From a virus (taxonomy: Duplodnaviria > Caudoviricetes): a DNA stretch of 33,380 nt. Below the pieces are notes generated by a model. The model worked only from the letters and a program-made list of their open reading frames with translations, was not told where the DNA came from and ran no database searches. Position 1 is the stretch's first letter. Each line of letters opens with the position of its first letter. The translations under genes were made by a program, and so were the position numbers. Shown in pieces: positions 1 through 33,380 of this stretch. Location of the stretch: positions 1 to 33,380 of IMG/VR virus record IMGVR_UViG_3300025101_000088. One strand, written 5' to 3'.

Positions 1-53
1 TTCATCGCCGTTTTAGGGGGGTTGCCCTGTGGCAAAAATACAACAGTGTGGCA

Positions 54-86
54 AACCAGCCGCCAAGTACCTTTTGGCGGCTGGTT
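54..86 (-). terminator. Intrinsic terminator after ORF 95..625
   Basis: 13-bp inverted repeat AACCAGCCGCCAA / TTGGCGGCTGGTT just downstream of the stop codon, with only a short T tail. Confidence 0.7.
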
Positions 87-94
87 GCTAGGGG

Positions 95-625
95 TTAGCT
101 GCTAACCACCAGTTTACATAATGGGTTGCCCCAACCAACGCTGCTGGGGCTGCTGCCGCCAGCCATAGCCTTTAGTATAGGGTTTTGGTTTAGGCTGCTG
201 GTAACGCTGCTGCCGCTGTTGGCGGCAATAGCATTTACCATTGCCAATGGCACGGCGGCTGGCACTTGCGTTGGCACATTAGTTTTAAGCCAGCCAAAGC
301 TAGTTATAAACTTAGGCTTTGGCGCAATGTAGCCTTGTGCGCTAGGCTGCCAATATTTAGCTGGCAAGCCACCATTAACCATAACCCAAAGCATTTGCCC
401 AAAGTGGCCTATTGCCTTGCCGTTGGCTGGCTGCATAGCACGCCAAAAGTTAGCACCGCCCATAAGCGCATTGGCTTGCACGGCGGCTGGCAATAGCTGC
501 ACGTTAATATTGCCAATGCCATTAGCAGTAATAAACGCCTTAATAGCAAGGCTGCAATAAACGCCTTGGCTACCCAAATTTGCGGCTGTAAAAGCTGCCG
601 CTGCTTGTGTGTTTGTGTTACCCAT
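95..625 (-). CDS. Hypothetical early protein with no Asp/Glu; paralog of 1970..2428
   Basis: 176-aa ORF with SD-like AAGGGGT upstream and a terminator downstream. C-terminal GGSSPSSVGWGNPLCKLV resembles GGQSPSAKATWGNAFVELF. Confidence 0.85.
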   Translation of the reverse strand: MGNTNTQAAAAFTAANLGSQGVYCSLAIKAFITANGIGNINVQLLPAAVQANALMGGANFWRAMQPANGKAIGHFGQMLWVMVNGGLPAKYWQPSAQGYIAPKPKFITSFGWLKTNVPTQVPAAVPLAMVNAIAANSGSSVTSSLNQNPILKAMAGGSSPSSVGWGNPLCKLVVSS

Positions 626-678
626 TGGTAAACCCCTTTTTAGTTAATGCCGCCGCCCTATGCGGTGGCTACACCTAT

Positions 679-708
679 TTTATGCCATAGGTGGCATATG
701 CTTGTAAA
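679..708 (-). promoter_or_regulatory. Sigma70-like promoter with an overlapping palindrome
   Basis: Minus strand TTTACA-18 nt-CATAAA. Inverted repeat TATGCCA-TAGG-TGGCATA at 681-698. Confidence 0.5.
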
Positions 709-711
709 CCC

Positions 712-762
712 CTAAAAGCACATTGCTACAAAAATAATTACAAGCACACCTAGCAACCCCAT
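712..762 (-). CDS. Putative 16-aa hydrophobic peptide MGLLGVLVIIFVAMCF
   Basis: TAATG stop/start overlap with the upstream ORF; entirely hydrophobic. Confidence 0.35.
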   Translation of the reverse strand: MGLLGVLVIIFVAMCF

Positions 763-962
763 TAGCATTTGTGCCGCCATGCGCTTAAATAGCCAAAGCC
801 AAACAGCACCGCACCATAAACAAGCATAAAAGCATTTATGTAATGGTGGCTAAAAATAGGTGGCAGTACAAATGCGCCAGTGGCGGCAAACATTAAGGTA
901 ACGCCAGCCACCATGCATAAGGTGCAAAAAAACATATATAAATAAACCATAGTAAACCCCAT
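762..962 (-). CDS. Small two-TM membrane protein with no Asp/Glu (start possibly 950)
   Basis: Two hydrophobic segments; GGGGTTTACT precedes the ATG at 950. Confidence 0.65.
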   Translation of the reverse strand: MGFTMVYLYMFFCTLCMVAGVTLMFAATGAFVLPPIFSHHYINAFMLVYGAVLFGFGYLSAWRHKC

Positions 963-1070
963 TGGTTAGTTGCGTTATGTAAATAGCTAAAAGCTAAACC
1001 ACGCTCCGGCAAGTGGCAATGTGGTCAAACGCATCGCTGCCAGATTTGTTTATGATATGATATTATATAA

Positions 1071-1969: not shown

Positions 1970-2428
1970 TTACTTGGCTGGGATAACGAACAGCTCAACG
2001 AAAGCATTGCCCCATGTCGCCTTGGCTGATGGGGACTGTCCACCATTAAGCGCGTCCAACAAAGCATGGAAGCGACGTGCTTTAATGGCGCGATGCGCAT
2101 TGTCCACGTCTGTTAAGGTGATCGGGTCCATGTGGGAGTTGATCAACTGCCAGACTACCATGCCGCGGAGCGACATTTTGGGCGACCCGTCAGCGTCCCA
2201 TAAGGTTTTCTTCTTTTCCCAAGGGAAGGGGAGCTCCGTAGCAGGGTCAACCTCAACAATGGTGCGGACGCCTACATTGTTTGGATTGCCACCAGCATGC
2301 TGCTGGACAAACGTAAAGATGTCCTCGGCAGTAACGCCTTGGGACTTGCGATCCTCAGGCAACTCATTGATACCACGAAAAACGACTTCTGCCACTTGGG
2401 ACTTTTTAACTACAGCTGATTTAGCCAT
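1970..2428 (-). CDS. Hypothetical protein; paralog of 95..625
   Basis: 152-aa ORF with AAGGAG RBS, its own promoter and terminator. Shares SQGV, G.M.W...N and GG.SPS...WGN motifs with 95..625. Confidence 0.88.
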   Translation of the reverse strand: MAKSAVVKKSQVAEVVFRGINELPEDRKSQGVTAEDIFTFVQQHAGGNPNNVGVRTIVEVDPATELPFPWEKKKTLWDADGSPKMSLRGMVVWQLINSHMDPITLTDVDNAHRAIKARRFHALLDALNGGQSPSAKATWGNAFVELFVIPAK

Positions 2429-2484
2429 AACGATGCTCCTTTCTACGAGCAGTACCGCGACACCATTGCCGCTTTGGTAAGTAT

Positions 2485-2513
2485 AGAGTAGCGCAGTTGA
2501 TGGCTGATGTAAA
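2485..2513 (-). promoter_or_regulatory. Sigma70-like promoter
   Basis: Minus strand TTTACA-17 nt-TACTCT. Confidence 0.6.
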
Positions 2514-2577: not shown

Positions 2578-3003
2578 TCAGGAATCATCGCTCTTCATCA
2601 GTCGTCCGAGTACTCTTGCCCATCCATCATGGTCAATCGGCCATTCCATCCGATCATCGTAGACTGGATCTCCATCCATCAATCTCTGGCTCAGGTGCCG
2701 ACCATCCAAAAATAATAGCTGGCCTGATGAAGGATGATGAACCAAGTTCCAAACGCATCCACCAACAGAGGTTCTTGAGGTCTGCCATGCTATTTGATGA
2801 GGACGCCACTGTGGGAACTTCTTGTCAGACTTTGTCGTAAGAACCTTTAGCTCAACCCAGAAGTCCTTGCCGTTCAAGCAACCGTTGACGTCAGGCACTC
2901 CTGGACTAGCCCACGACTCCATCCTAGTCCAATGCACCCCGAGGGACTTGGTTCCATCCCGTAGTGATTTCCAAAATTTAGACTCAGGTTTCTTTGTTGC
3001 CAT
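2578..3003 (-). CDS. PD-(D/E)XK nuclease, Holliday junction resolvase/VRR-NUC-like
   Basis: E..FW...RME...GVPD...WVELK...HQIAW motif pattern. Confidence 0.85.
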   Translation of the reverse strand: MATKKPESKFWKSLRDGTKSLGVHWTRMESWASPGVPDVNGCLNGKDFWVELKVLTTKSDKKFPQWRPHQIAWQTSRTSVGGCVWNLVHHPSSGQLLFLDGRHLSQRLMDGDPVYDDRMEWPIDHDGWARVLGRLMKSDDS

Positions 3004-3538
3004 CAGGTAGAACCTCCAAGTTATCCATGTCTATGACAGGGCTGGTTGCTTCTACCAATGCTGGGAACTCTTGCTGGATACGCTTAATTTCATTGACCAC
3101 TTCTTCTTTACTCATTTGGTCAATCTTACCATGCAGTATTTCTTTGCGATCAATGTACAGCCCAGCCGCCTGACCTCTTGACTTTTCAGCTGTGACCGCC
3201 GCCGCATAGTTTCCATTCTGCAAAGCCACATCACGGAGTTGTGCTAACTTCTGCACATGGCTTTCAAAAGTTACCTCATACTTCTGCTGTAACTCTTTTT
3301 TGATTTCACGCACCCTGTCCAAAACCTGTGGATAGCTACGTCCGTTAAGCATATGACTTGCAATAGAGTGTGCATTAGATTCAGCGTACCCTGCCCTGAT
3401 CGCTGCTTCCGTTTGCGTAACCTCTTCTGTAGCATAAATCATTGCAAACTTTTCCTGCATGGGTGTCAGCCCTTTTTCCACCCGAGGGTTAGCTACAATG
3501 TCCAAACTATTTTTATGAGTGACTTTTGCCTTTGCCAT
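2984..3538 (-). CDS. terS: Terminase small subunit
   Basis: LTPMQEKFA..Y....TQTEAAIRAGY...A...AS.ML..PQV HTH signature of Terminase_2. Confidence 0.85.
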   Translation of the reverse strand: MAKAKVTHKNSLDIVANPRVEKGLTPMQEKFAMIYATEEVTQTEAAIRAGYAESNAHSIASHMLNGRSYPQVLDRVREIKKELQQKYEVTFESHVQKLAQLRDVALQNGNYAAAVTAEKSRGQAAGLYIDRKEILHGKIDQMSKEEVVNEIKRIQQEFPALVEATSPVIDMDNLEVLPDGNKET

Positions 3539-3874
3539 AAAGTCATACTACTTTTCTATAATAGGAAGGTAAATAGAAATCGAGTCATTACAAAAAACCA
3601 ACCGCTTCAAGTCGCGTAGCTGTCTAAAGTTTTAGACATAATATATGATTCAGTAACATAACCCTTTGATATGATTGTATAGCCAGATAACATATATTTG
3701 AATATCGGATAGAGTACCATACCCCATATTTCATTTCTGGTACTATATATAAAAGTGATGCAATATCAGAGAGCCATGATCCGTAGACCATGACCCTTGA
3801 CCCTTTTGTTGTTTACAGAAGTTGAATTAGCACAGCGATTATTGTTGGCAATGTATCCCAGATCATATCCATAT

Positions 3875-6753: not shown

Positions 6754-6923
6754 AAGGTAGAAAAAGATTTACTCATGCCACTCTGCATATTACTCAGGCG
6801 AGGGACAGAATGGTTAGAGATCCGTGGCCTTGTATTTCACAATCCTTAGGAGCATCCATCCAGATTGCAAGGACGACGTCAAACCTAATACACGCCGCCC
6901 ATCAGAGGTTAACTTCTACCCCC
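6754..6923 (-). ncRNA. Candidate structured RNA
   Basis: Closing stem GGGGTAGAAG/TTTTCTACCTT and internal stems GGGCGGCGT/ACGTCGTCC and TTGCAATCT/GGATTGTGA. G-U pairs work only on the minus strand; lies in an intergenic gap. Confidence 0.45.
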
Positions 6924-8269: not shown

Positions 8270-8709
8270 GATGCTAACCTCCTAGCCATTACTGCATTGT
8301 AAGAACGAACACCCTGTGTCGTGATATGATAATAAAAAGGACGCGAACCTTGAAGGCGTTGTAAATCACCACGAGTACAAAGCGTTGATAGTATTTTAGA
8401 GGGGTCACACTCCTCAGCTAAATCATCAAAGTCATGCACACACATTGTTGCTCGTGTCTGTGCAAATTTAGCAAGTATCTTAGAAGTGTAGTTTTCATTT
8501 GTACGCATGGCAGTTCTTTTAACAGATTTTTTCTTACGCTTTATAGGAGCGGCTGGTATCATAGGTTTGAGATCAGCCAGCATTGGCATTTGTTTGATTA
8601 GCCATTGTATCTGACCACCGATACTACGGCACTCATGCTCGGCTATTTTTGCCAAAATATCGTATGTTTCAATATCAATAGAAACAGATTTAAATTTTGT
8701 AGTGTCCAT
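8266..8709 (-). CDS. Ribbon-helix-helix regulator with probable C-terminal winged helix
   Basis: KFKSVSIDIETYDILAKIAEHECRSIGGQIQWLI, a basic linker, then SKILSTLCTRGDLQR...YHITTQG. Confidence 0.75.
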   Translation of the reverse strand: MDTTKFKSVSIDIETYDILAKIAEHECRSIGGQIQWLIKQMPMLADLKPMIPAAPIKRKKKSVKRTAMRTNENYTSKILAKFAQTRATMCVHDFDDLAEECDPSKILSTLCTRGDLQRLQGSRPFYYHITTQGVRSYNAVMARRLAS

Positions 8710-9520: not shown

Positions 9521-10051
9521 TCAAACGCTTAAATTATAATGGGTTAGGACTTTATTTACTGGCTCAAAATCATCTAAATCACTAAATTTTTTGTACAGAT
9601 AATTGATGCCTGTATGCATTATCACTTTCATCTGGTCACTTTGATTTGAATGACGATGGGAATAGAGCACGAGCTCAAGCATATCTGCCATTTTTAATCT
9701 ATTCTTTTCTTCTGGCGATAAAACAAAAGTCAGTCCAAGGTCATCCATCACTTTCTTTTCTGCTCTTTCAAATGCTTTTTGCACTTCAGGATAAGACCAT
9801 TTAGCTGTAGCTGGTATATCCCCTAGTATCAACTCTGGAACATCATGGTACAAAGAAGCCATGATTAGTTGTTTTGTACTATCAGGCCAAAGCTGGTCAA
9901 TCAATATACTTACTGCGTATGAATGTGCTCCCACTGTCTGTCTCTCTGCTTGCATTGCTACTGTGTGGAAGCGCAATAGAAATTGAGCATCCCACGCTGT
10001 TGTCAAAGTTTTAATGTTCGGTATTATCTTGCATTGGCGTCCCGCCATCAC
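9521..10051 (-). CDS. HD-domain 5'-deoxynucleotidase (YfbR-like)
   Basis: RFH...QTVGAHS...LYHDVPE...GDIP...K...LK.AD.LE. Confidence 0.88.
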   Translation of the reverse strand: MMAGRQCKIIPNIKTLTTAWDAQFLLRFHTVAMQAERQTVGAHSYAVSILIDQLWPDSTKQLIMASLYHDVPELILGDIPATAKWSYPEVQKAFERAEKKVMDDLGLTFVLSPEEKNRLKMADMLELVLYSHRHSNQSDQMKVIMHTGINYLYKKFSDLDDFEPVNKVLTHYNLSV

Positions 10052-11930
10052 TTACCCCTCTTGTCCACGGCTTATCACTAAATGTCTTTTTAGCTTCACC
10101 CCAACTTGGACCGAACTCTGCATCTACTACACTTGGTATTTGCATATCAACACAATCCTGCATTATTTCTTTTATTTTCAAACCTACATCGGGTTCAGCC
10201 ACAGATATATCTAATTCATCATGCACTTGTATGAGCGGCACTATCCCTTCTTTATGCAAAGCTACCATCGCAGCTTTAGTTTGGTCAGCCGCGCTACCCT
10301 GTATCAATCTATTAAGTGCTTTATATGTAAAGGAACGTTTGATAGCTGGACCATGTTCAGCGTATGCATCCTCATAACTCATGGGTTTAGCTGTCCCATA
10401 AGCATTCGGTTCCCATTTATTAAACCTACATTTCCTACCGAGCAGTGTGCGTATCACACCTTTATTAGAGGCACGGTTGACTACATAATCTGCAAGCTGT
10501 TGAACAAAAGGAACTTTACCATGATACTCGGCAAATAAATCCTTTGCATCACTAAACTCTAATCCTAATTGTTCAGCCAATTTGTTTTTACCCATCCCAT
10601 AGAATAAACCGAGGTTTATATCTTTAGCTTGTTTACGAGGCACTCCTACAATATCGGCAGCCATTTGATGGAAGTCTGTATTAGCATCTACATTGTACTG
10701 GTCAGCAAACTCTTGTGCGCCTGTCAGTTTTAGTAAACTAGCATAATGAACAACGAGCCGTGGTTCTTGGCTACTATAATCAAAAGCACCCCATAGCTCA
10801 CCCTCTTCAGGTAAAAATAATCCGCGTATCATTGGACCTATCTCAGCATTCCGTGCTGGCACTTGTTGTAGATTAGGATTGCTGTAACTAAACCTACCTG
10901 TCACTGTGCCACCATCATCACTTCGTAAGCTATGCGCTTCAGCATGGATGCGACCATTGTGCTGATGCTTTAGTATAGTATCGATAAAGGTGGTTCTAGC
11001 TTTATTCAGCTCACGAGCTCGAACCACAGCCTGAGGAAGTGCATGGGCATGGTTGGCTAGAAAGTTTTTAGTAAAGCTGGGTTGTCCTGATTTAGGAGTT
11101 TTAGGGTATCGCAACCCTTGTGCATCAAATGCTTTTGCGATACTTGCCGCTGCCCATATATCAATATCCTGACCGCCAGCATCATGTAAAACCTTTTCCT
11201 CTTCTTTTTGCAGATATACTTTTAACTCTTCTGCCTTACCTAAATCAACACGCACACCCTTCTTACGCATCTCAAATACAACTTTGAGTACATTTAGTTC
11301 TAAATCAAATATATCTGCCACATCTTCTTTGAGTATGAGACCCTTGAAGAACTGCCATAATTTCAGTGTAAGTGCTGCATCCTGTTCTGCATACGCACCG
11401 ACAAAATGCGCTGGTAATTTGTACATCTCACTCTTAGCATTTACACCAAATGATTGTGCGGCTTCGTACAAATCACGCTCACTCTTGCGTTCATTAAGAT
11501 AATCTCTACCGAGTGCATTGAGTGCATAACTAAATCTGTTTTCATCCAGTAGTGCGGCTACAATCATTGTATCCACTATTCGGCCTTTTACTTCTATACC
11601 TTCAGCCCACAGCCATCCAAGATCATACATAGCATTGTGCATAATGTAATCACGCTCAACAGAACATACTTCTGCCAACCATCGCATGGTTTGTTTTGGA
11701 TCAAGGTTACTACCATTATCATGTCGTATAGGAAAATACCAAGCTGTACCCTCTACTGCTACGGCTACCCCAATGATGTAACCATCCTTACGAGGCCATC
11801 CGCTACCACGAGATGTGAGATTAGGGTCGCATGTTTCTAAATCAATAGATACTTCCCTAGCTTCTGACAGGTCGGGATAACCATCGGGCATAACCCACTC
11901 AGTCGGCGGTGTGAACAAGGGGAACTGCAT
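10011..11930 (-). CDS. polA: DNA polymerase family A with 3'-5' exonuclease
   Basis: Exonuclease motifs DLET, HNAMYD, YAEQDA; TGRFS..NPNLQQVP; motif A DYSSQEPR; motif B RKQAKDINLGLFYG; motif C VHDEL. Confidence 0.97.
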   Translation of the reverse strand: MQFPLFTPPTEWVMPDGYPDLSEAREVSIDLETCDPNLTSRGSGWPRKDGYIIGVAVAVEGTAWYFPIRHDNGSNLDPKQTMRWLAEVCSVERDYIMHNAMYDLGWLWAEGIEVKGRIVDTMIVAALLDENRFSYALNALGRDYLNERKSERDLYEAAQSFGVNAKSEMYKLPAHFVGAYAEQDAALTLKLWQFFKGLILKEDVADIFDLELNVLKVVFEMRKKGVRVDLGKAEELKVYLQKEEEKVLHDAGGQDIDIWAAASIAKAFDAQGLRYPKTPKSGQPSFTKNFLANHAHALPQAVVRARELNKARTTFIDTILKHQHNGRIHAEAHSLRSDDGGTVTGRFSYSNPNLQQVPARNAEIGPMIRGLFLPEEGELWGAFDYSSQEPRLVVHYASLLKLTGAQEFADQYNVDANTDFHQMAADIVGVPRKQAKDINLGLFYGMGKNKLAEQLGLEFSDAKDLFAEYHGKVPFVQQLADYVVNRASNKGVIRTLLGRKCRFNKWEPNAYGTAKPMSYEDAYAEHGPAIKRSFTYKALNRLIQGSAADQTKAAMVALHKEGIVPLIQVHDELDISVAEPDVGLKIKEIMQDCVDMQIPSVVDAEFGPSWGEAKKTFSDKPWTRGVSDGGTPMQDNTEH

Positions 11931-12072
11931 CTCTTACCTTTATTTTCATAGGTTGATTACATTTAGAACAATGAGGCCATTTATTTTTAAGAGCACGGAA
12001 GGTCATAACTCTGCTATCCCTTCCACACTCACACTCAGCCAATACTTCTTTATCTAGCTTTTCGTTTACCAT
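11899..12072 (-). CDS. 57-aa zinc-ribbon protein (absent from the supplied ORF track)
   Basis: MVNEKLDKEVLAECECGRDSRVMTFRALKNKWPHCSKCNQPMKIKVRDAVPLVHTAD fills the gap and overlaps both neighbours; CxC and CxxC. Confidence 0.7.
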   Translation of the reverse strand: MVNEKLDKEVLAECECGRDSRVMTFRALKNKWPHCSKCNQPMKIKVRDAVPLVHTAD

Positions 12073-12463
12073 TTTGTCTCATGTATACTTCAGCTTCCAC
12101 TAGAAACAGATAACGCCGTAAGTCTCGTATATCATCCAATACACCTTCCTCACGATCATCATAAGTTATAGCTTGAAATATATCATAACCCTGCTCGGTT
12201 ACTTGTTTTTCAAGCCGATCCCATTTACGAGCCAGCATCATAAATGCACCGACACCGCCACGTTGTTTCCAACTATCACCGTAAGATTGCTCAGCTTCTT
12301 CTAACTTTACATGATCTATTACGGTGAGCTTACCAACTTGTTTTATAATAGGGCTTTGTTCTTTTGGTTGTGGTTCTTTATCTTTTACCATTACATCATA
12401 TTCCTTCCAATCCAGCTCACGCATACGGCGAATCATGTATTGTTCGTAACTTTCTCGTCCCAT
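12050..12463 (-). CDS. Nucleotide-modification-associated protein (DUF1599/Nmad1-like, all-alpha NTP pyrophosphatase-like)
   Basis: SYGDSWKQRGGVGAFMMLARKWDRLE...DDIRDLRRYL; adjacent to the thymidylate-synthase homolog. Confidence 0.7.
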   Translation of the reverse strand: MGRESYEQYMIRRMRELDWKEYDVMVKDKEPQPKEQSPIIKQVGKLTVIDHVKLEEAEQSYGDSWKQRGGVGAFMMLARKWDRLEKQVTEQGYDIFQAITYDDREEGVLDDIRDLRRYLFLVEAEVYMRQNGKRKAR

Positions 12464-13461
12464 TTTTCTCTCCTACGCTCAAGCCATTCCCAAGTGGCTA
12501 AATGCCAATCGTCAGGCTTTATGTCTGCACAATGGTCAAAAGCTAAAGCTAATTCTTTAGCTTTCCATGCTTGCCAGACTTTGTGCATAGGTTGTGCCAA
12601 ATCAGAAAAAGTGGAGTTAATATATGGTCTTGGCCTTTCAGGGTCTTCAATAAACCAACTAAGCTCTTCATCAAATGATTCTATATTATTTACAAGAGCA
12701 TCTGGCCTGATCATGCGCGTATTATAGGCTTCATAATCAGGCAGCATACCATCTAGCTTTTTTAATACTTCTGTATAAGCATGAAGATTATTACTAAACT
12801 GTGTGTATATACCAACACTCGCGCCGATACGTGAGGCTATATACTCTTGAAGAATGGACATATGGACAGCATTAGCTCCTAATGCACCCCAGATCATATC
12901 ATTACTGCGGTTGCATACTGTCATATCAAGTATATTGTCGCGCACATTAAAATAAATATGAGTATTACAAGGATGGTCTTTACAGCTATTACTCATTCGT
13001 AAATCACCTTCGGCATCCCACATTGCAAGCACCGCTCGTCTATCATTTGTATGCGTCATCAATCTATGAACGATTACATCAATTTGGTCACGATGGAAGT
13101 AATTACGCCAACGATATCCATAAGCTCCCTGTAATACTTTACCATCATCACTATACTCACTCATCCGTGCATTATAACGCTGTATCCATGCAAGGTCATT
13201 ACGCCCTGCTAACATCCACAGGCTTTCCATAAAATGAAATATAGGATTAGCATCACGCTCAGGATAAAACAGTACACGCTCGCGTGGGCTGTTGTAGACA
13301 ATGGCACATGGCTCACGGAACTCAATCGCTTTACCATTACGCGTCTCTACTTCTACACCATCTGCTTCTAATGCTTGCTTCACAACATACAGTGCTTCGC
13401 TTACATTTGTGACTGTGAAAGTATGTACACCCCTCATAGGTGCTTTACCAAATAATGCCAT
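12433..13461 (-). CDS. Thymidylate-synthase-fold dUMP hydroxymethylase (5-hmdUMP synthase)
   Basis: TRNG, AYGYRW, RRAVLAMWD, catalytic PC, RSNDMIWGALGAN (Asn at the dUMP-specificity position), NLHAY; clustered with a 5-hmdU kinase. Confidence 0.88.
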   Translation of the reverse strand: MALFGKAPMRGVHTFTVTNVSEALYVVKQALEADGVEVETRNGKAIEFREPCAIVYNSPRERVLFYPERDANPIFHFMESLWMLAGRNDLAWIQRYNARMSEYSDDGKVLQGAYGYRWRNYFHRDQIDVIVHRLMTHTNDRRAVLAMWDAEGDLRMSNSCKDHPCNTHIYFNVRDNILDMTVCNRSNDMIWGALGANAVHMSILQEYIASRIGASVGIYTQFSNNLHAYTEVLKKLDGMLPDYEAYNTRMIRPDALVNNIESFDEELSWFIEDPERPRPYINSTFSDLAQPMHKVWQAWKAKELALAFDHCADIKPDDWHLATWEWLERRREKWDEKVTNNT

Positions 13462-13488
13462 ATTAAACCGCCTTTCTATGGGGTTATA

Positions 13489-13506
13489 AAGCCGCTCGAG
13501 CGGCCT
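13489..13506. repeat. Perfect 14-bp palindrome / hairpin GCCGCTCGAGCGGC
   Basis: 13491-13504, in the gap between the radical SAM and hydroxymethylase genes; followed by TTT on the minus strand. Confidence 0.55.
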
Positions 13507-13544
13507 GAATTAACTTGCCCTAACCTACTACTAAAAGCAACCCT

Positions 13545-14564
13545 CTAGCTGTCTGAGTAGCCCTTAATAAAGTCATAATGTTTCTTTACTCTTTTGGTGT
13601 ATGTGCCTCCAGCCAATGCTTCTTTAATTGCAGTATTTGTTTCCTCCGTAGGCTCGGGTAACGTCTTACGTCCCATACGGTCAGGTAACAATCCATTACG
13701 AAGAGTGGTATTGTCACAGCCATTGCAAGGACCGAATTTACGGTCTCCGTTATACAACTTTTGCCGCGCTGCATGAAAAGCCTTCCCCTGCCATACTTCT
13801 TCTATAGGTGTATCAATTACATTGCCACACTTGTACCATCCTACCCAATCATTACAGCATATAGCAACATTACCATCCCAGCGTATAGACATCTCACGGA
13901 AAGGTTTTGCACAACGCTTACCATCTTGTTCATGGTTTAAAGGGAAAGAGTTACCAGCGTGGTTACTGACTTGTGCGTGGGTTCCGCTAGTAGCGAGCGT
14001 AAGATCAAGTCCAACAACGATATGATGTTCTGTAACCTTTCTTCGTCGGTGGGGGTTGGCGTCACGTTCAGCGGGATATTCAAATACGGGATATGGACCA
14101 TTGTATCTCTCCTTTATTTTGTCCACTATTTTTATGCGATCATAATTGTCAAGGAATAAAACATTTAGCCCTGCTTCCATCAACATATTTACACTTTTCT
14201 GTGTATCTCTTAATAAACCACCACCATTACTGGTCATCATCAAAGGTGTTTTAGGTAACTCCTGTCGGAACAGCCGTATCATATCAATAAAGAAGGGGTG
14301 CATGGTTGGCTCACCATGCATGGCAAACTCTAATCGTGGGTTCCATTTAGCTTCTTTAATGCGGCTGCAGATAGCCCTAGCCCTTTCTATCGTAAGATAT
14401 GAGTAAGGAGCAGAGGCTTTACCATGAATGTTTTGTGGACCATCGGCATTATTCTCACGTATCGCTTGTATACCGCAAAAAGAACAAGCAAGGTTACATC
14501 CCTCAGTTAATTCTATTTGTATAGAATTAGGTGGGTCTTGATAATGGTTAGATACAGTTGCCAT
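13545..14564 (-). CDS. Radical SAM protein with SPASM/Twitch domain
   Basis: CNLACSFC, HGEP, TSNG; C-terminal CAKPF..MSIRWDGNVAICCND...GNV...W...PCNGC. Start at 14564 or 14597. Confidence 0.92.
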   Translation of the reverse strand: MATVSNHYQDPPNSIQIELTEGCNLACSFCGIQAIRENNADGPQNIHGKASAPYSYLTIERARAICSRIKEAKWNPRLEFAMHGEPTMHPFFIDMIRLFRQELPKTPLMMTSNGGGLLRDTQKSVNMLMEAGLNVLFLDNYDRIKIVDKIKERYNGPYPVFEYPAERDANPHRRRKVTEHHIVVGLDLTLATSGTHAQVSNHAGNSFPLNHEQDGKRCAKPFREMSIRWDGNVAICCNDWVGWYKCGNVIDTPIEEVWQGKAFHAARQKLYNGDRKFGPCNGCDNTTLRNGLLPDRMGRKTLPEPTEETNTAIKEALAGGTYTKRVKKHYDFIKGYSDS

Positions 14565-15333
14565 CTTTAGCAGCCTTTCGCCATTGTACGCGAACATCCC
14601 AACGTGTTTTCATACCCTCCCAACCTGTTTTAGTTTCTTTCTGTACAGCTTTTACATAATCAGGAAACTTTTCAGCAAGGGCAAGGCTCGCACGTTCTTG
14701 TAACTCTGCATTGCGGTATGAACTACAGCCACCAGCAGCACCTGAAGCACCACGCTGATCCCATGTCCAATCAACAATTACAGCATTACCATGACCATGC
14801 TTAAATAACTCAAGTGTAACGTAATAATCTTCCATAAGCTCCATAGTATCATAACGTATGCCCAACCCATGAATAATTTCAGGACGTATGGCGTGAACAG
14901 CATTTTGTCGCATACCATACTTAACTGTATCAGGGAAGTGCTTATCATTCATTTGCCTTGGGCTAAGTCCCACATGAGTAAAGTTATTCAACAACCACTC
15001 CATGCGCTCCCATAACTCATGCATCTCTTCTTGATTTGTTTTTCTTAAGTTGGGAGCCAGCCCATGTATGCGGCGACCAAATATAAGATCATCATCCAGA
15101 ATAATAATTTTATCATGCTTCTGCTCCACGGCATGTTCTAATATGAACTGCCTTACATTATTGATACCTTTTAAATCACCACGATTTAAACAATACCGAC
15201 CCTGTCTCGTATGCCAGTTTACTTCATCTTGTGGGCATACAAGAACAGCATGCTCTCTGCCCTCAGGACCAATGCTTTGCCAAGTAACTTGGTTATTCAT
15301 CCTGCCCCTAGTTGGAATATATATTGGTATCAT
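14548..15333 (-). CDS. GT-A fold DNA glycosyltransferase (TET-associated / base J glucosyltransferase-like)
   Basis: IYIPTRGR, GI..VRQFI, IIILDDD (DxD), EDYYVTL, GGCS.YR. Confidence 0.82.
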   Translation of the reverse strand: MIPIYIPTRGRMNNQVTWQSIGPEGREHAVLVCPQDEVNWHTRQGRYCLNRGDLKGINNVRQFILEHAVEQKHDKIIILDDDLIFGRRIHGLAPNLRKTNQEEMHELWERMEWLLNNFTHVGLSPRQMNDKHFPDTVKYGMRQNAVHAIRPEIIHGLGIRYDTMELMEDYYVTLELFKHGHGNAVIVDWTWDQRGASGAAGGCSSYRNAELQERASLALAEKFPDYVKAVQKETKTGWEGMKTRWDVRVQWRKAAKDGNCI

Positions 15334-15629
15334 ATCTCATCCTCATCAAACCTTACTTGCCCTTCAAGCACTGCCCTTTCTAATTCTTCATCACTCATGT
15401 AATCGAGCTCAAACATCGTTTGTTTTCTTTTTGGTTTTAACACTCGTTTTCTGGTTTTGGGTTTTGGCTCTGCTTTCGGCTTCGGCTTCGGCGGCTCTTG
15501 CGGCTCTAATAGTTCCAATGTCCGATAATTGTATTTGCATTTCGGACAGTTCCTCTTCCTCCGTATTGTGCCTTGATAAGGACGACTGTCTACGACCTCG
15601 GATTTGCCATTGCATTTTGGACACAACAT
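15330..15629 (-). CDS. NrdR N-terminal-like zinc ribbon protein, no ATP cone
   Basis: CPKC...SEVVDSR.....IRRKRNCPKC...YRTLE, then a Pro/Lys linker and an acidic tail. Confidence 0.8.
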   Translation of the reverse strand: MLCPKCNGKSEVVDSRPYQGTIRRKRNCPKCKYNYRTLELLEPQEPPKPKPKAEPKPKTRKRVLKPKRKQTMFELDYMSDEELERAVLEGQVRFDEDEI

Positions 15630-15631
15630 AA

Positions 15632-16528
15632 TTACGCCACCGTCCCAATCGGAGCCTCCAGCACTGAACTCTGTAGTCCATTATACTTACTACGCGGAGT
15701 GCCTTGACCAAGCCTAACGCGCTCATATTTATCCCACTCGCATAAGCTATGTTCAATACAGCGCATATCCACCGCCAAAGTCGGGATGTGTTTGCCAAGA
15801 TAACGGTGTGAATCTTCGAGTAAATCTTGCATCTCCCTATTGCTTTGATAAGCACCTAATGCTTTTGTGAGCGGCCTATCGTGGATCCTGTTGAGGCCAC
15901 GCTTTGCTCCCGGACCAGCGTTTGCCCATTTGTATTTGTCTTCGGCTTTGGCAAGGACTGGTGTGTAGTTGAGGTCGGTAACAACCTCGTATGACATAAA
16001 ACCTCCCCCTCCCCATCCTTTATATGCCGCCAACGCTTTGTGTACTTCTTCCAACGACTGTGTTTCGGTGGCAATCTGCGCCAACGCTTCTTTGTTTTCC
16101 CATATTGGCGAAAGGAAATGGTCAACAACTACCTCCGATTTAGGTGCTTTGAGTCCTTGGTTAGTGATTATATATGCACCAGTAAAAGTCCGTAAACCCT
16201 GCTTCAACCTTTCTTCAATCAAAGACTTAGTATGCTCAGGATTAAACTCTTCTACCCAACCATGCGCTTCAGCAAACTCACTAGTTCCAACCATACGAAA
16301 CATACAACAGTTAAATATCATCTCACCATGTGGGCGGTTATCATTTGGCTTTGTCCAGTTTTGCCGCATCCAAACAGTTACCCTATCATTCTCACGGAAA
16401 GGATTTGTGAATTTATATTGTTGTAAGATAGTGTCTTCTGTCCAAGGGGCAGGAAGCCCCTTGGCTCTTTTTTGATAAATGGCATGACGCTCATTAATCC
16501 AGTAGCAGAACCTTTCTATGTTCTCCAT
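15632..16528 (-). CDS. 5-hmdU DNA kinase (aGPT-Pplase1 / 5-HMUDK helical domain)
   Basis: ERHAIY..R..G.P.PWTED.ILQQYKFTN.FRENDR, FTGAY, G.FM.YEVVTDL, GPGAKRGL, IEHSLCEWDKYER. Confidence 0.92.
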   Translation of the reverse strand: MENIERFCYWINERHAIYQKRAKGLPAPWTEDTILQQYKFTNPFRENDRVTVWMRQNWTKPNDNRPHGEMIFNCCMFRMVGTSEFAEAHGWVEEFNPEHTKSLIEERLKQGLRTFTGAYIITNQGLKAPKSEVVVDHFLSPIWENKEALAQIATETQSLEEVHKALAAYKGWGGGGFMSYEVVTDLNYTPVLAKAEDKYKWANAGPGAKRGLNRIHDRPLTKALGAYQSNREMQDLLEDSHRYLGKHIPTLAVDMRCIEHSLCEWDKYERVRLGQGTPRSKYNGLQSSVLEAPIGTVA

Positions 16529-33039: not shown

Positions 33040-33380
33040 TATGCCATCCTTTCAAACTTACGCATCATATCATACATGCGTTTTGCACCAGCTCTACGGT
33101 CGCCATCACCTGCGCCACGAACAGCTTTTGCATTCATAACAAATTCACCATCACTCAACATAGCTGGTATAGAATCACTGGTAGAGGTTCCTGGACCATT
33201 TATTTCACCACCGCCTCTAGCAAACAATGCTCCAGGAGTAAAAGTAGAATCTTGGTAATAAGGGTTATCACCGTAAAAATCCCTGCCATAACCATATTTT
33301 TCTGGCTGGTCTTTATAAAGCATCACACCTGTTGTATCATGATATCCATCTTGATCTTCATCATCAGGGTTATCATCAGG
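33039..33380 (-). CDS. Virion protein, C-terminal part (truncated by the window edge)
   Basis: Frame is open to the window end; FARGGEINGPGTSTSDSIPAMLSDGEFVMNAKAVRG motif. Confidence 0.8.
   Translation of the reverse strand, partial: PDDNPDDEDQDGYHDTTGVMLYKDQPEKYGYGRDFYGDNPYYQDSTFTPGALFARGGGEINGPGTSTSDSIPAMLSDGEFVMNAKAVRGAGDGDRRAGAKRMYDMMRKFERMA

Follow-up and report, generated by a model that had tools for sequence, protein, structure and literature searches.

A TC/GA-free gene unit beside terL in an ocean phage with a predicted thymidine-glycosylation pathway

The first kilobase of a 33,380-nt window of phage DNA (the whole stretch that was analysed) raises the question of why coding DNA should do without the dinucleotide TC on either strand. 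Between the TC at 5-6 and the TC at 1005-1006 lie 998 nt (7..1004) with no TC and no GA, against 104.3 expected at the rate of the rest of the window (log10 P = -47.8; P ~1e-48) and 124 expected from the zone's own base composition; the minimum in 2000 base shuffles of the zone is 95. Elsewhere in the window, stretches without TC/GA reach 65 nt at most, and for other dinucleotides no gap comes near the size of the void. The initial annotation, which reported about 1 kb of coding DNA free of both dinucleotides, is borne out (0 in 998 nt vs ~104 expected), as is its remark that TG, TT, CT and AG stay abundant (80, 61, 52 and 56 in the zone; CA 84); the G+C content of the zone is 48%, and no trinucleotide finer than TC stands out as the avoided motif. 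The void is real, conserved and shaped by selection. No paper on a motif-free recoded unit was found in the literature searched, mostly as listings; the accessible text of the CAjan paper has no passage on motif-free regions.

Anatomy of the void and its duplicate gene

The core void is a single unit consisting of a promoter-like site, a ribosome site, gene B and a hairpin; a C-run and then terL follow. The features of the zone and of the paralogous gene A are:

7..1004, no strand: TC/GA-free zone, from dinucleotide counts
15..23, minus strand: conserved C-run at the 3' edge of the void, where the window's contig ends
54..86, minus strand: GC-rich hairpin past the stop of B, probably a terminator; several relatives have both hairpin and T-run
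95..625, minus strand (ORF 625-95): gene B, 176 aa with a net charge of +9 and no Asp or Glu, a recoded paralog of A
633..641, minus strand: GA-free ribosome-binding site of B, AAAAAGGGG; the counterpart of gene A is GTAGAAAGGAG
677..708, minus strand: putative sigma70-like promoter of B, -35 TTTACA and a -10-like element
712..762, minus strand: hydrophobic ORF of 16 aa, coupled to the preceding stop (TAATG)
762..950, minus strand: hydrophobic ORF of 62 aa, or of 66 aa if begun at the ATG at 962; lies inside or outside the void depending on the relative
991..1019, minus strand: TTGCCA and TAGCTT 17 nt apart, a weak candidate promoter for the hydrophobic ORFs, read by eye
1970..2428, minus strand (2428-1970): gene A, the paralog of B with normal composition, 1.3 kb away in ordinary DNA
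2436..2513, minus strand: promoter-like and ribosome sites of A (TTTACA, TACTCT, GTAGAAAGGAG), laid out as in B but with TC/GA

Gene B is protein-coding, with 32/22/114 variable columns per codon position in a six-sequence alignment. Its Ser is written only as AGC (15) and its Phe only as TTT (6), and the ORFs 950-762 and 762-712 follow the same rule; the codon cost first described for the zone (no Asp or Glu, Ser as AGY, Phe as TTT) therefore holds for all three ORFs. Promoters were judged by the alphaproteobacterial consensus. The -35 element of B, TTTACA, is a GA-free variant of TTGACA, and GGGGTTTAC(A) at its promoter-like site is kept in closer relatives; the upstream regions of B and A share one layout, of which B has GA-free versions, even for the ribosome site. 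Of the elements originally assigned to the zone, the genes and a promoter-like site stand, and the terminator does so in part: the hairpin at 86-54 is present, but a terminator scan of the window does not list it, and no T-run directly follows it there.

In relatives, a second hairpin and then terL come past the C-run. The void ends 78-99 nt past the stop of B in 18 of 22 strict units, in which its reach is at least 13 nt upstream of B (median 127.5) and at least 31 nt downstream (median 83.5); the comparable TC/GA-free reach around 49 A genes is only 3 nt upstream and 3 nt downstream (medians). The void continues 40-50 nt beyond the hairpin, a stretch that transcription of B would not need. 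It starts within the spacer of the possible promoter at 991..1019, and the small hydrophobic ORFs lie inside it in some relatives only.

The zone carries genes, as originally described; the point overlooked was that the void gene is a recoded duplicate of gene 2428-1970. Gene A has 18 Asp/Glu codons, 24 GA and 28 TC (counted in the 99%-identical L001 copy). The direct match between A and B is weak (E 3e-4) and becomes clear via relatives; AlphaFold models of the two have their main helices and strands in common order, that of B with a pLDDT of 86.9. The non-redundant set of genes lying no more than 800 nt from terL numbers 61, of which 36 contain two GA+TC or fewer and 30 lack Asp/Glu altogether, and 46 of 86 full-length family representatives have 0-1 Asp/Glu; the median net charge is +11 for B and +7 for A. 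Membership of the A class required more than 20 GA+TC, a cut-off that left out one gene (L495), and a false family member (L065:10927) was removed from the alignment. On a quick tree built from few columns, the A and B labels cluster, with 3 changes.

The A/B family has no Pfam or PHROG match, no solved relative and no match in the Atlas other than unnamed viral clusters; it was not found in cultured phages. Foldseek gave no match, and no clear fold emerged; fold comparison gives a faint likeness to the winged-helix domains of Fur, MCM and BlaI (Z 2-3.5; best Z overall 4.9), with Z 3.5 and rmsd 2.8 over 56 residues for 2ma3, and no likeness to MotA appeared in these searches. In one protein, P0082 (420 aa, from a single 9.7-kb contig), an A/B domain is fused to an HNH_2 nuclease, making it a candidate modification-dependent nuclease by its domains; it is a singleton, and no further A/B-nuclease fusions were found. 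In G021 the void gene (L077:11963-12628) encodes a 221-aa protein without an A/B profile match, and a normal copy of the family lies 5.9 kb from terL. The void can also sit away from terL, as GA/TC-free family genes of the more distant phages L551, L553 and L495 lie 2.7-4.5 kb off.

Predicted thymidine modification and the spread of the void

Genes recognised in the window include polA, helicases and a primase, terS and an HD nucleotidase, besides TS-family, radical SAM, TAGT and HMUDK_hel genes. Those that concern the modification, with terS, are:

2984..3538, minus strand: terminase small subunit
9521..10051, minus strand: HD 5'-deoxynucleotidase-like gene
12433..13461, minus strand: protein of the thymidylate synthase family; YuA gp17, annotated as dUMP hydroxymethylase, is 44% identical
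13545..14597, minus strand: radical SAM/SPASM protein, confined to TAGT-bearing genomes
14548..15333, minus strand: TAGT glycosyltransferase
15632..16528, minus strand: aGPT-PPlase1/HMUDK_hel helical protein, not a P-loop kinase

An M6/ViI-type dUMP hydroxymethylase is counted as present, a prediction from the 44% identity to YuA gp17; the Asn of the protein at 12433..13461 presumably makes it uracil-type, by the Asn/Asp rule of TS-family enzymes. Of the 5-hmdU kinase pathway that had been regarded as established, the hydroxymethylase stands and the kinase does not, the Pfam name 'HMUDK_hel' belonging to the helical aGPT-PPlase1; kinase activity is assigned to the P-loop protein (Lee 2021, PMC8989533). 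The P-loop 5-hmdU kinase YuA gp13 is unmatched (tblastn E 0.01) across 12 near-whole records plus 20 partial stretches, and no Pfam kinase occurs in 48 window ORFs or 21 further G001 ORFs, a very divergent kinase being possible. The PPlase2-like gp10, PLP enzyme gp11 and radical SAM protein gp12 of YuA are unmatched in the same 12 records and 20 stretches; gp10 is taken to be PPlase2 (amino acid:DNA transferase) from gene order, and aGPT-PPlase2 has no Pfam match in the window or the further G001 ORFs scanned. The ORF 17148-16531 was considered as a kinase or as an A/B relative and rejected, with no Walker A motif and a profile match probability of 0.1%; its position before PPlase1 is kept in the relatives inspected, and its C-terminal domain resembles, by eye, phiJL001 gp18, which has the same position.

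The kinase/glycosyltransferase/radical SAM operon of the initial annotation also needs revision: the glycosyltransferase is constant, as one of three interchangeable types or candidates, the kinase was not found and the radical SAM gene is optional. At 80 PPlase1 loci the glycosyltransferase is TAGT in 30, GT4 in 33 and a 330-aa candidate without a Pfam family in 14; none is in view at 3, two of which have a GT4 7 kb off, the third being a cut-short sequence. The three modules swap in one slot: L262:1624-2940 (GT4), L297:1547-2518 (the 330-aa candidate, whose module occurs with or without an FkbM methyltransferase) and the window's 13545-15333 (TAGT plus radical SAM). This swapping suggests that different sugars may be placed on one TC context. 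With TS and TAGT, the window holds a base J-type gene set, an hmU source and a DNA glycosyltransferase; since the 5-hmdU kinase was not found, the modified base is probably glycosyl-hmU at TC and not an M6-type amine.

Hypermodified T has been inferred at TG/TC from restriction data for M6, ViI and phiW-14 (Flodman 2019, PMC6449724), and the modification of phage 15599 is described as mainly at TG (PMC13458397). The present phage resembles M6, YuA, ViI and phiW-14 in its predicted dUMP hydroxymethylase, PPlase1, HD protein and context-specific modification of T; unlike them it has a glycosyltransferase in place of the kinase, PPlase2, PLP enzyme and gp12-type radical SAM protein, and its predicted context is TC only. 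YuA, unlike the window, has no void. Base J of kinetoplastids is described as marking RNA polymerase II initiation and termination sites, being placed at chosen sites and acting with a J-binding complex (PMC4150806). The product predicted here is likewise a glycosyl-hmU; unlike base J it would be genome-wide, and the functional mark would be its absence.

Searches with terS and gene B gave 88 loci, and TC/GA gaps of 500-1026 nt recur among them directly upstream of terL. A void was called where the best 400 nt before terL held at most 8 GA+TC, and the operon was defined by the dUMP-hydroxymethylase, PPlase1 and glycosyltransferase genes, in 36 records on a terL tree. Of the 27 operon-bearing records, 20 have the void, 2 a leaky one (9-11 GA+TC) and 5 none (28-33), against 0 of 9 without the operon (19-39 GA+TC in the best 400 nt; in four cultured controls, counted over the first 50 kb only). 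Dinucleotide counts in relatives with and without the operon had been proposed at the outset, and they favor the suggested link: the void tracks the thymidine-modification genes, operon-less relatives have none, and genome-wide TC is mildly low in operon-bearing records (rho 0.85, range 0.74-0.93 in 8 records, vs 0.97, range 0.92-1.04 in 9), TG being equal. The TCN share of Ser codons is 0.40-0.60 in 24 operon-bearing records and 0.65-0.70 in 6 without. All void-bearing records form one terL clade, so the void-operon link is not independent support and amounts to about one event. Strictness of the void and genome-wide TC avoidance are uncorrelated (rho 0.19, p 0.36, n 24).

The void-less operon-bearing records are G022, G035, G043, G055 and G058, in all of which a glycosyltransferase was found; no enzyme residue was seen to tell void-less from void-bearing records. 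G022 has the operon, is placed outside the void clade and carries one family gene with just 3 Asp/Glu, possibly a relic of B. G061, which is off the tree, has an 856-nt void. The A/B family was not found in the 9 operon-less records, and no void was seen in YuA, phiJL001 or Sonora (50 kb examined for the latter two); phiJL001 carries TS, PPlase1 and a TAGT match, yet has no void in those 50 kb. Dependence of the void on TAGT/radical SAM is ruled out, as the void occurs with all three glycosyltransferase types. Library amplification of the unmodified zone alone was also rejected: runs with about a quarter of the words represent relatives across the whole stretch.

The phage is assigned to the HTVC023P type by terL, GroES, portal/capsid and a polA module akin to those of HTVC023P/027P. 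For terL, the comparison went through L086 and G001, two relatives with a gene B 97-100% identical to that of the window, and a relative's terL is 58-63% identical to those of HTVC023P, HTVC027P and 023Pt_psg01. The G+C content is 42% here and 35% in cultured HTVC023P-type members. GcrA in G022 suggests that the host would be alphaproteobacterial. As in the HTVC023P-type phages described by Wittmers 2022 (PMC9599517), TS, PPlase1, a glucosyltransferase and a deoxynucleotidase adjoin polA; that paper reports TS and aG/PT-PPlase1 in Podoviridae clades V, VIII and IX of the lineage, and its main text has 0 matches for 'dinucleotide', 'depleted' or 'terminal repeat'. Unlike the window, the cultured members have neither operon nor void in the 50 kb examined.

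Loss and return of TC, and the possible causes

The 11 pairwise alignments show TC giving way to TT (44 of 208 changed sites), TA (32), GC (29), CC (20), AC (20), TG (20), AG (12) and others, with Ser switches from TCN to AGY among them; so many routes point to selection. TpC is a known deaminase context and TT is the commonest single replacement, but the small share of TT and the Ser switches led to the rejection of a TC-context cytosine deaminase as the agent that wiped out the sites by mutation; such an origin is scarcely credible, as frames are intact, Asp/Glu codons are selectively spared and the zone keeps its 48% G+C. Of 35 B genes that are otherwise clean, 15 keep GA in Asp/Glu codons only.

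Background codons sufficed for a synonymous expectation in 52 of 70 B genes and in 38 of 49 A genes. All B genes together have 20 synonymous GA vs 708 expected and 236 TC vs 950 expected; in 16 leaky B genes sense GA is 18 vs 200 and sense TC 232 vs 304, and three near-normal units have sense GA at 0.39-0.49 and TC at 0.76-1.08 of expected. The A genes share this lean (GA 356 vs 607 expected, 0.59; TC 996 vs 706, 1.41; 38 of 38), so that the strand bias after correction is ~3.5-fold. Sense GA is TC on the template strand, and in decaying voids template-strand TC returns last; strict units are purged of TC on both strands, and leaky B genes are nested in strict clades several times.

The void is probably a unit kept free of the phage's own modification for first expression by host RNA polymerase. 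The phage would glycosylate its own thymines at TC and leave one unit readable on DNA entry: 5-hmdU would be put into the DNA and then sugar-capped, as in base J, to judge from the genes; the capped context would be 5'-TC, to judge from the avoidance; and a capped T would hinder the host's polymerase, above all when it lies on the template strand, as the borders of the unit and the strand bias suggest. The original description of the void as a feature of a transcription unit gains from its covering one unit and from the late return of template-strand TC. Bulky major-groove groups are reported typically to inhibit bacterial RNA polymerase, and T7 polymerase is more sensitive to them on the template strand; glucosyl-hmC DNA is still transcribed (PMC11550810), which counts against a polymerase block. 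Also counting against the explanation are the preference of the known enzymes, as described so far, for TG over TC, TG being kept here; the five void-less operon-bearing records and void-less phiJL001, YuA and Sonora; and both the two-strand purge in strict units and the non-correlation of strictness with avoidance. Contigs of one RNA run cover L082 2455-2996, which is gene B, a weak signal in which DNA in the library is possible; contigs of the same run also cover terL, common to many relatives. Missing RNA cover beside B has no weight, assembled contigs giving no measure of ends, strand or expression level.

Protein B, which is basic, might be a DNA-binding protein made first and enabling transcription of the remaining modified genome, twin A included; this is put forward tentatively, and the unlocking of modified DNA by B is the weakest step of the explanation. 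T4 MotA is a phage activator that works on modified DNA. It is rather doubtful that the two copies form a complete bootstrap, in which every TC would be sugar-capped and unreadable to the host except in the recoded unit, and B would be a reader of the modified base that unlocks the genome before twin A takes over. In T5 and T7 the first-entering regions are free of defence sites and have an early take-over role. The likeness proposed here is that of an early region with a special composition serving take-over; those regions avoid host motifs of 4-8 nt, whereas the mark here would be a self-made dinucleotide, avoided by recoding a duplicate gene.

The purge of both strands in strict units would also suit nuclease evasion: with no modified base in the zone, a modification-dependent nuclease of the host could not cut it before B, as an inhibitor or DNA shield, is made. 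The existence of type IV nucleases and of phage inhibitors of them counts for this reading, as does the fusion of a family member to HNH_2 in P0082; that fusion is a singleton with no others found, and the late return of template-strand TC is not predicted, so that nuclease evasion is judged improbable. A host factor attacking unmodified TC/GA motifs, the alternative offered in the initial annotation, is very unlikely: TNTC, GATC, GANTC and GAAC are indeed absent from the zone, but they make up only 41% of TC sites, and 61 other sites would be expected where 0 are seen, all TC contexts being lost. Moreover, the TC sites that return lack no context (TNTC makes up 35 of 148 such sites for B, and 304 of 1283 TC sites for A), and the void is absent from operon-less relatives.

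The position of the zone between terS and terL, with its 3' edge fixed at C-run and hairpin, would fit a packaging or genome-end signal left unmodified for terminase or end formation, with gene B as a passenger. Of 178 loci, among them some duplicates between collections, 17 have a contig end within 200 nt past the stop of B vs 4 within 200 nt before its start, and in G001 the void contains a 370-nt terminal overlap; the HTVC023P preprint, in its accessible text, has no passage on termini. The 5' edge of the void follows the promoter of B, and an entire gene is recoded despite an unrecoded twin nearby, neither of which suits a passenger gene. C-runs and hairpins alone break assemblies, 129 more distant terL loci (mostly relatives of HTVC027P) also break before terL (35 vs 10 within 1 kb), and one DNA contig spans the void unbroken. 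Such a signal has little probability as the cause of the whole zone, and may account for the last 50 nt of the void.

If the bootstrap reading holds, motif-free zones would reveal the modification context of phage DNA from sequence alone. How first genes are read in heavily modified phages is underexplored, as are the effects of modified bases on transcription (PMC11550810, PMC6449724). Genes A and B offer a paired test set up by nature, and the lineage that carries them is very abundant in the ocean. From the locus a glycosyl-thymidine at TC is predicted that has yet to be characterised; its new protein family is a candidate for the reader or activator, and is an example of a folded protein family without any acidic residues, owed to a constraint at the DNA level.

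Repeated and depleted stretches elsewhere

GATG/ATCC repeat tracts at 1106-1121, 1913-1931 and 6853-6862 of the window lie in spacers upstream of units, are TC-dense on the template strand, and are possibly roadblocks or binding sites; they occur in 6 of 36 records, all operon-bearing, and were rejected as a family-wide signal on that count. A 15-mer containing TATAAT is repeated on the minus strand at 1053-1067, 3667-3681 and 8322-8336 and is a possible phage-specific promoter motif. In G049, 11573-15427 looks by eye like the curli/T8SS cluster described for the lineage. The longest and third-longest TG/CA gaps of YuA, L089 600-681 (82 nt) and 33156-33220 (65 nt), follow two annotated sigma70 promoters but lie on low-complexity repeats. 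In HTVC027P (L091), an 834-nt CG-free stretch at 47295-48128 crosses an annotated glycosyltransferase gene and may be due to low G+C only. Tandem repeats of ~20-30 nt lie beside gene B in L597, L534 and L612, at contig ends.
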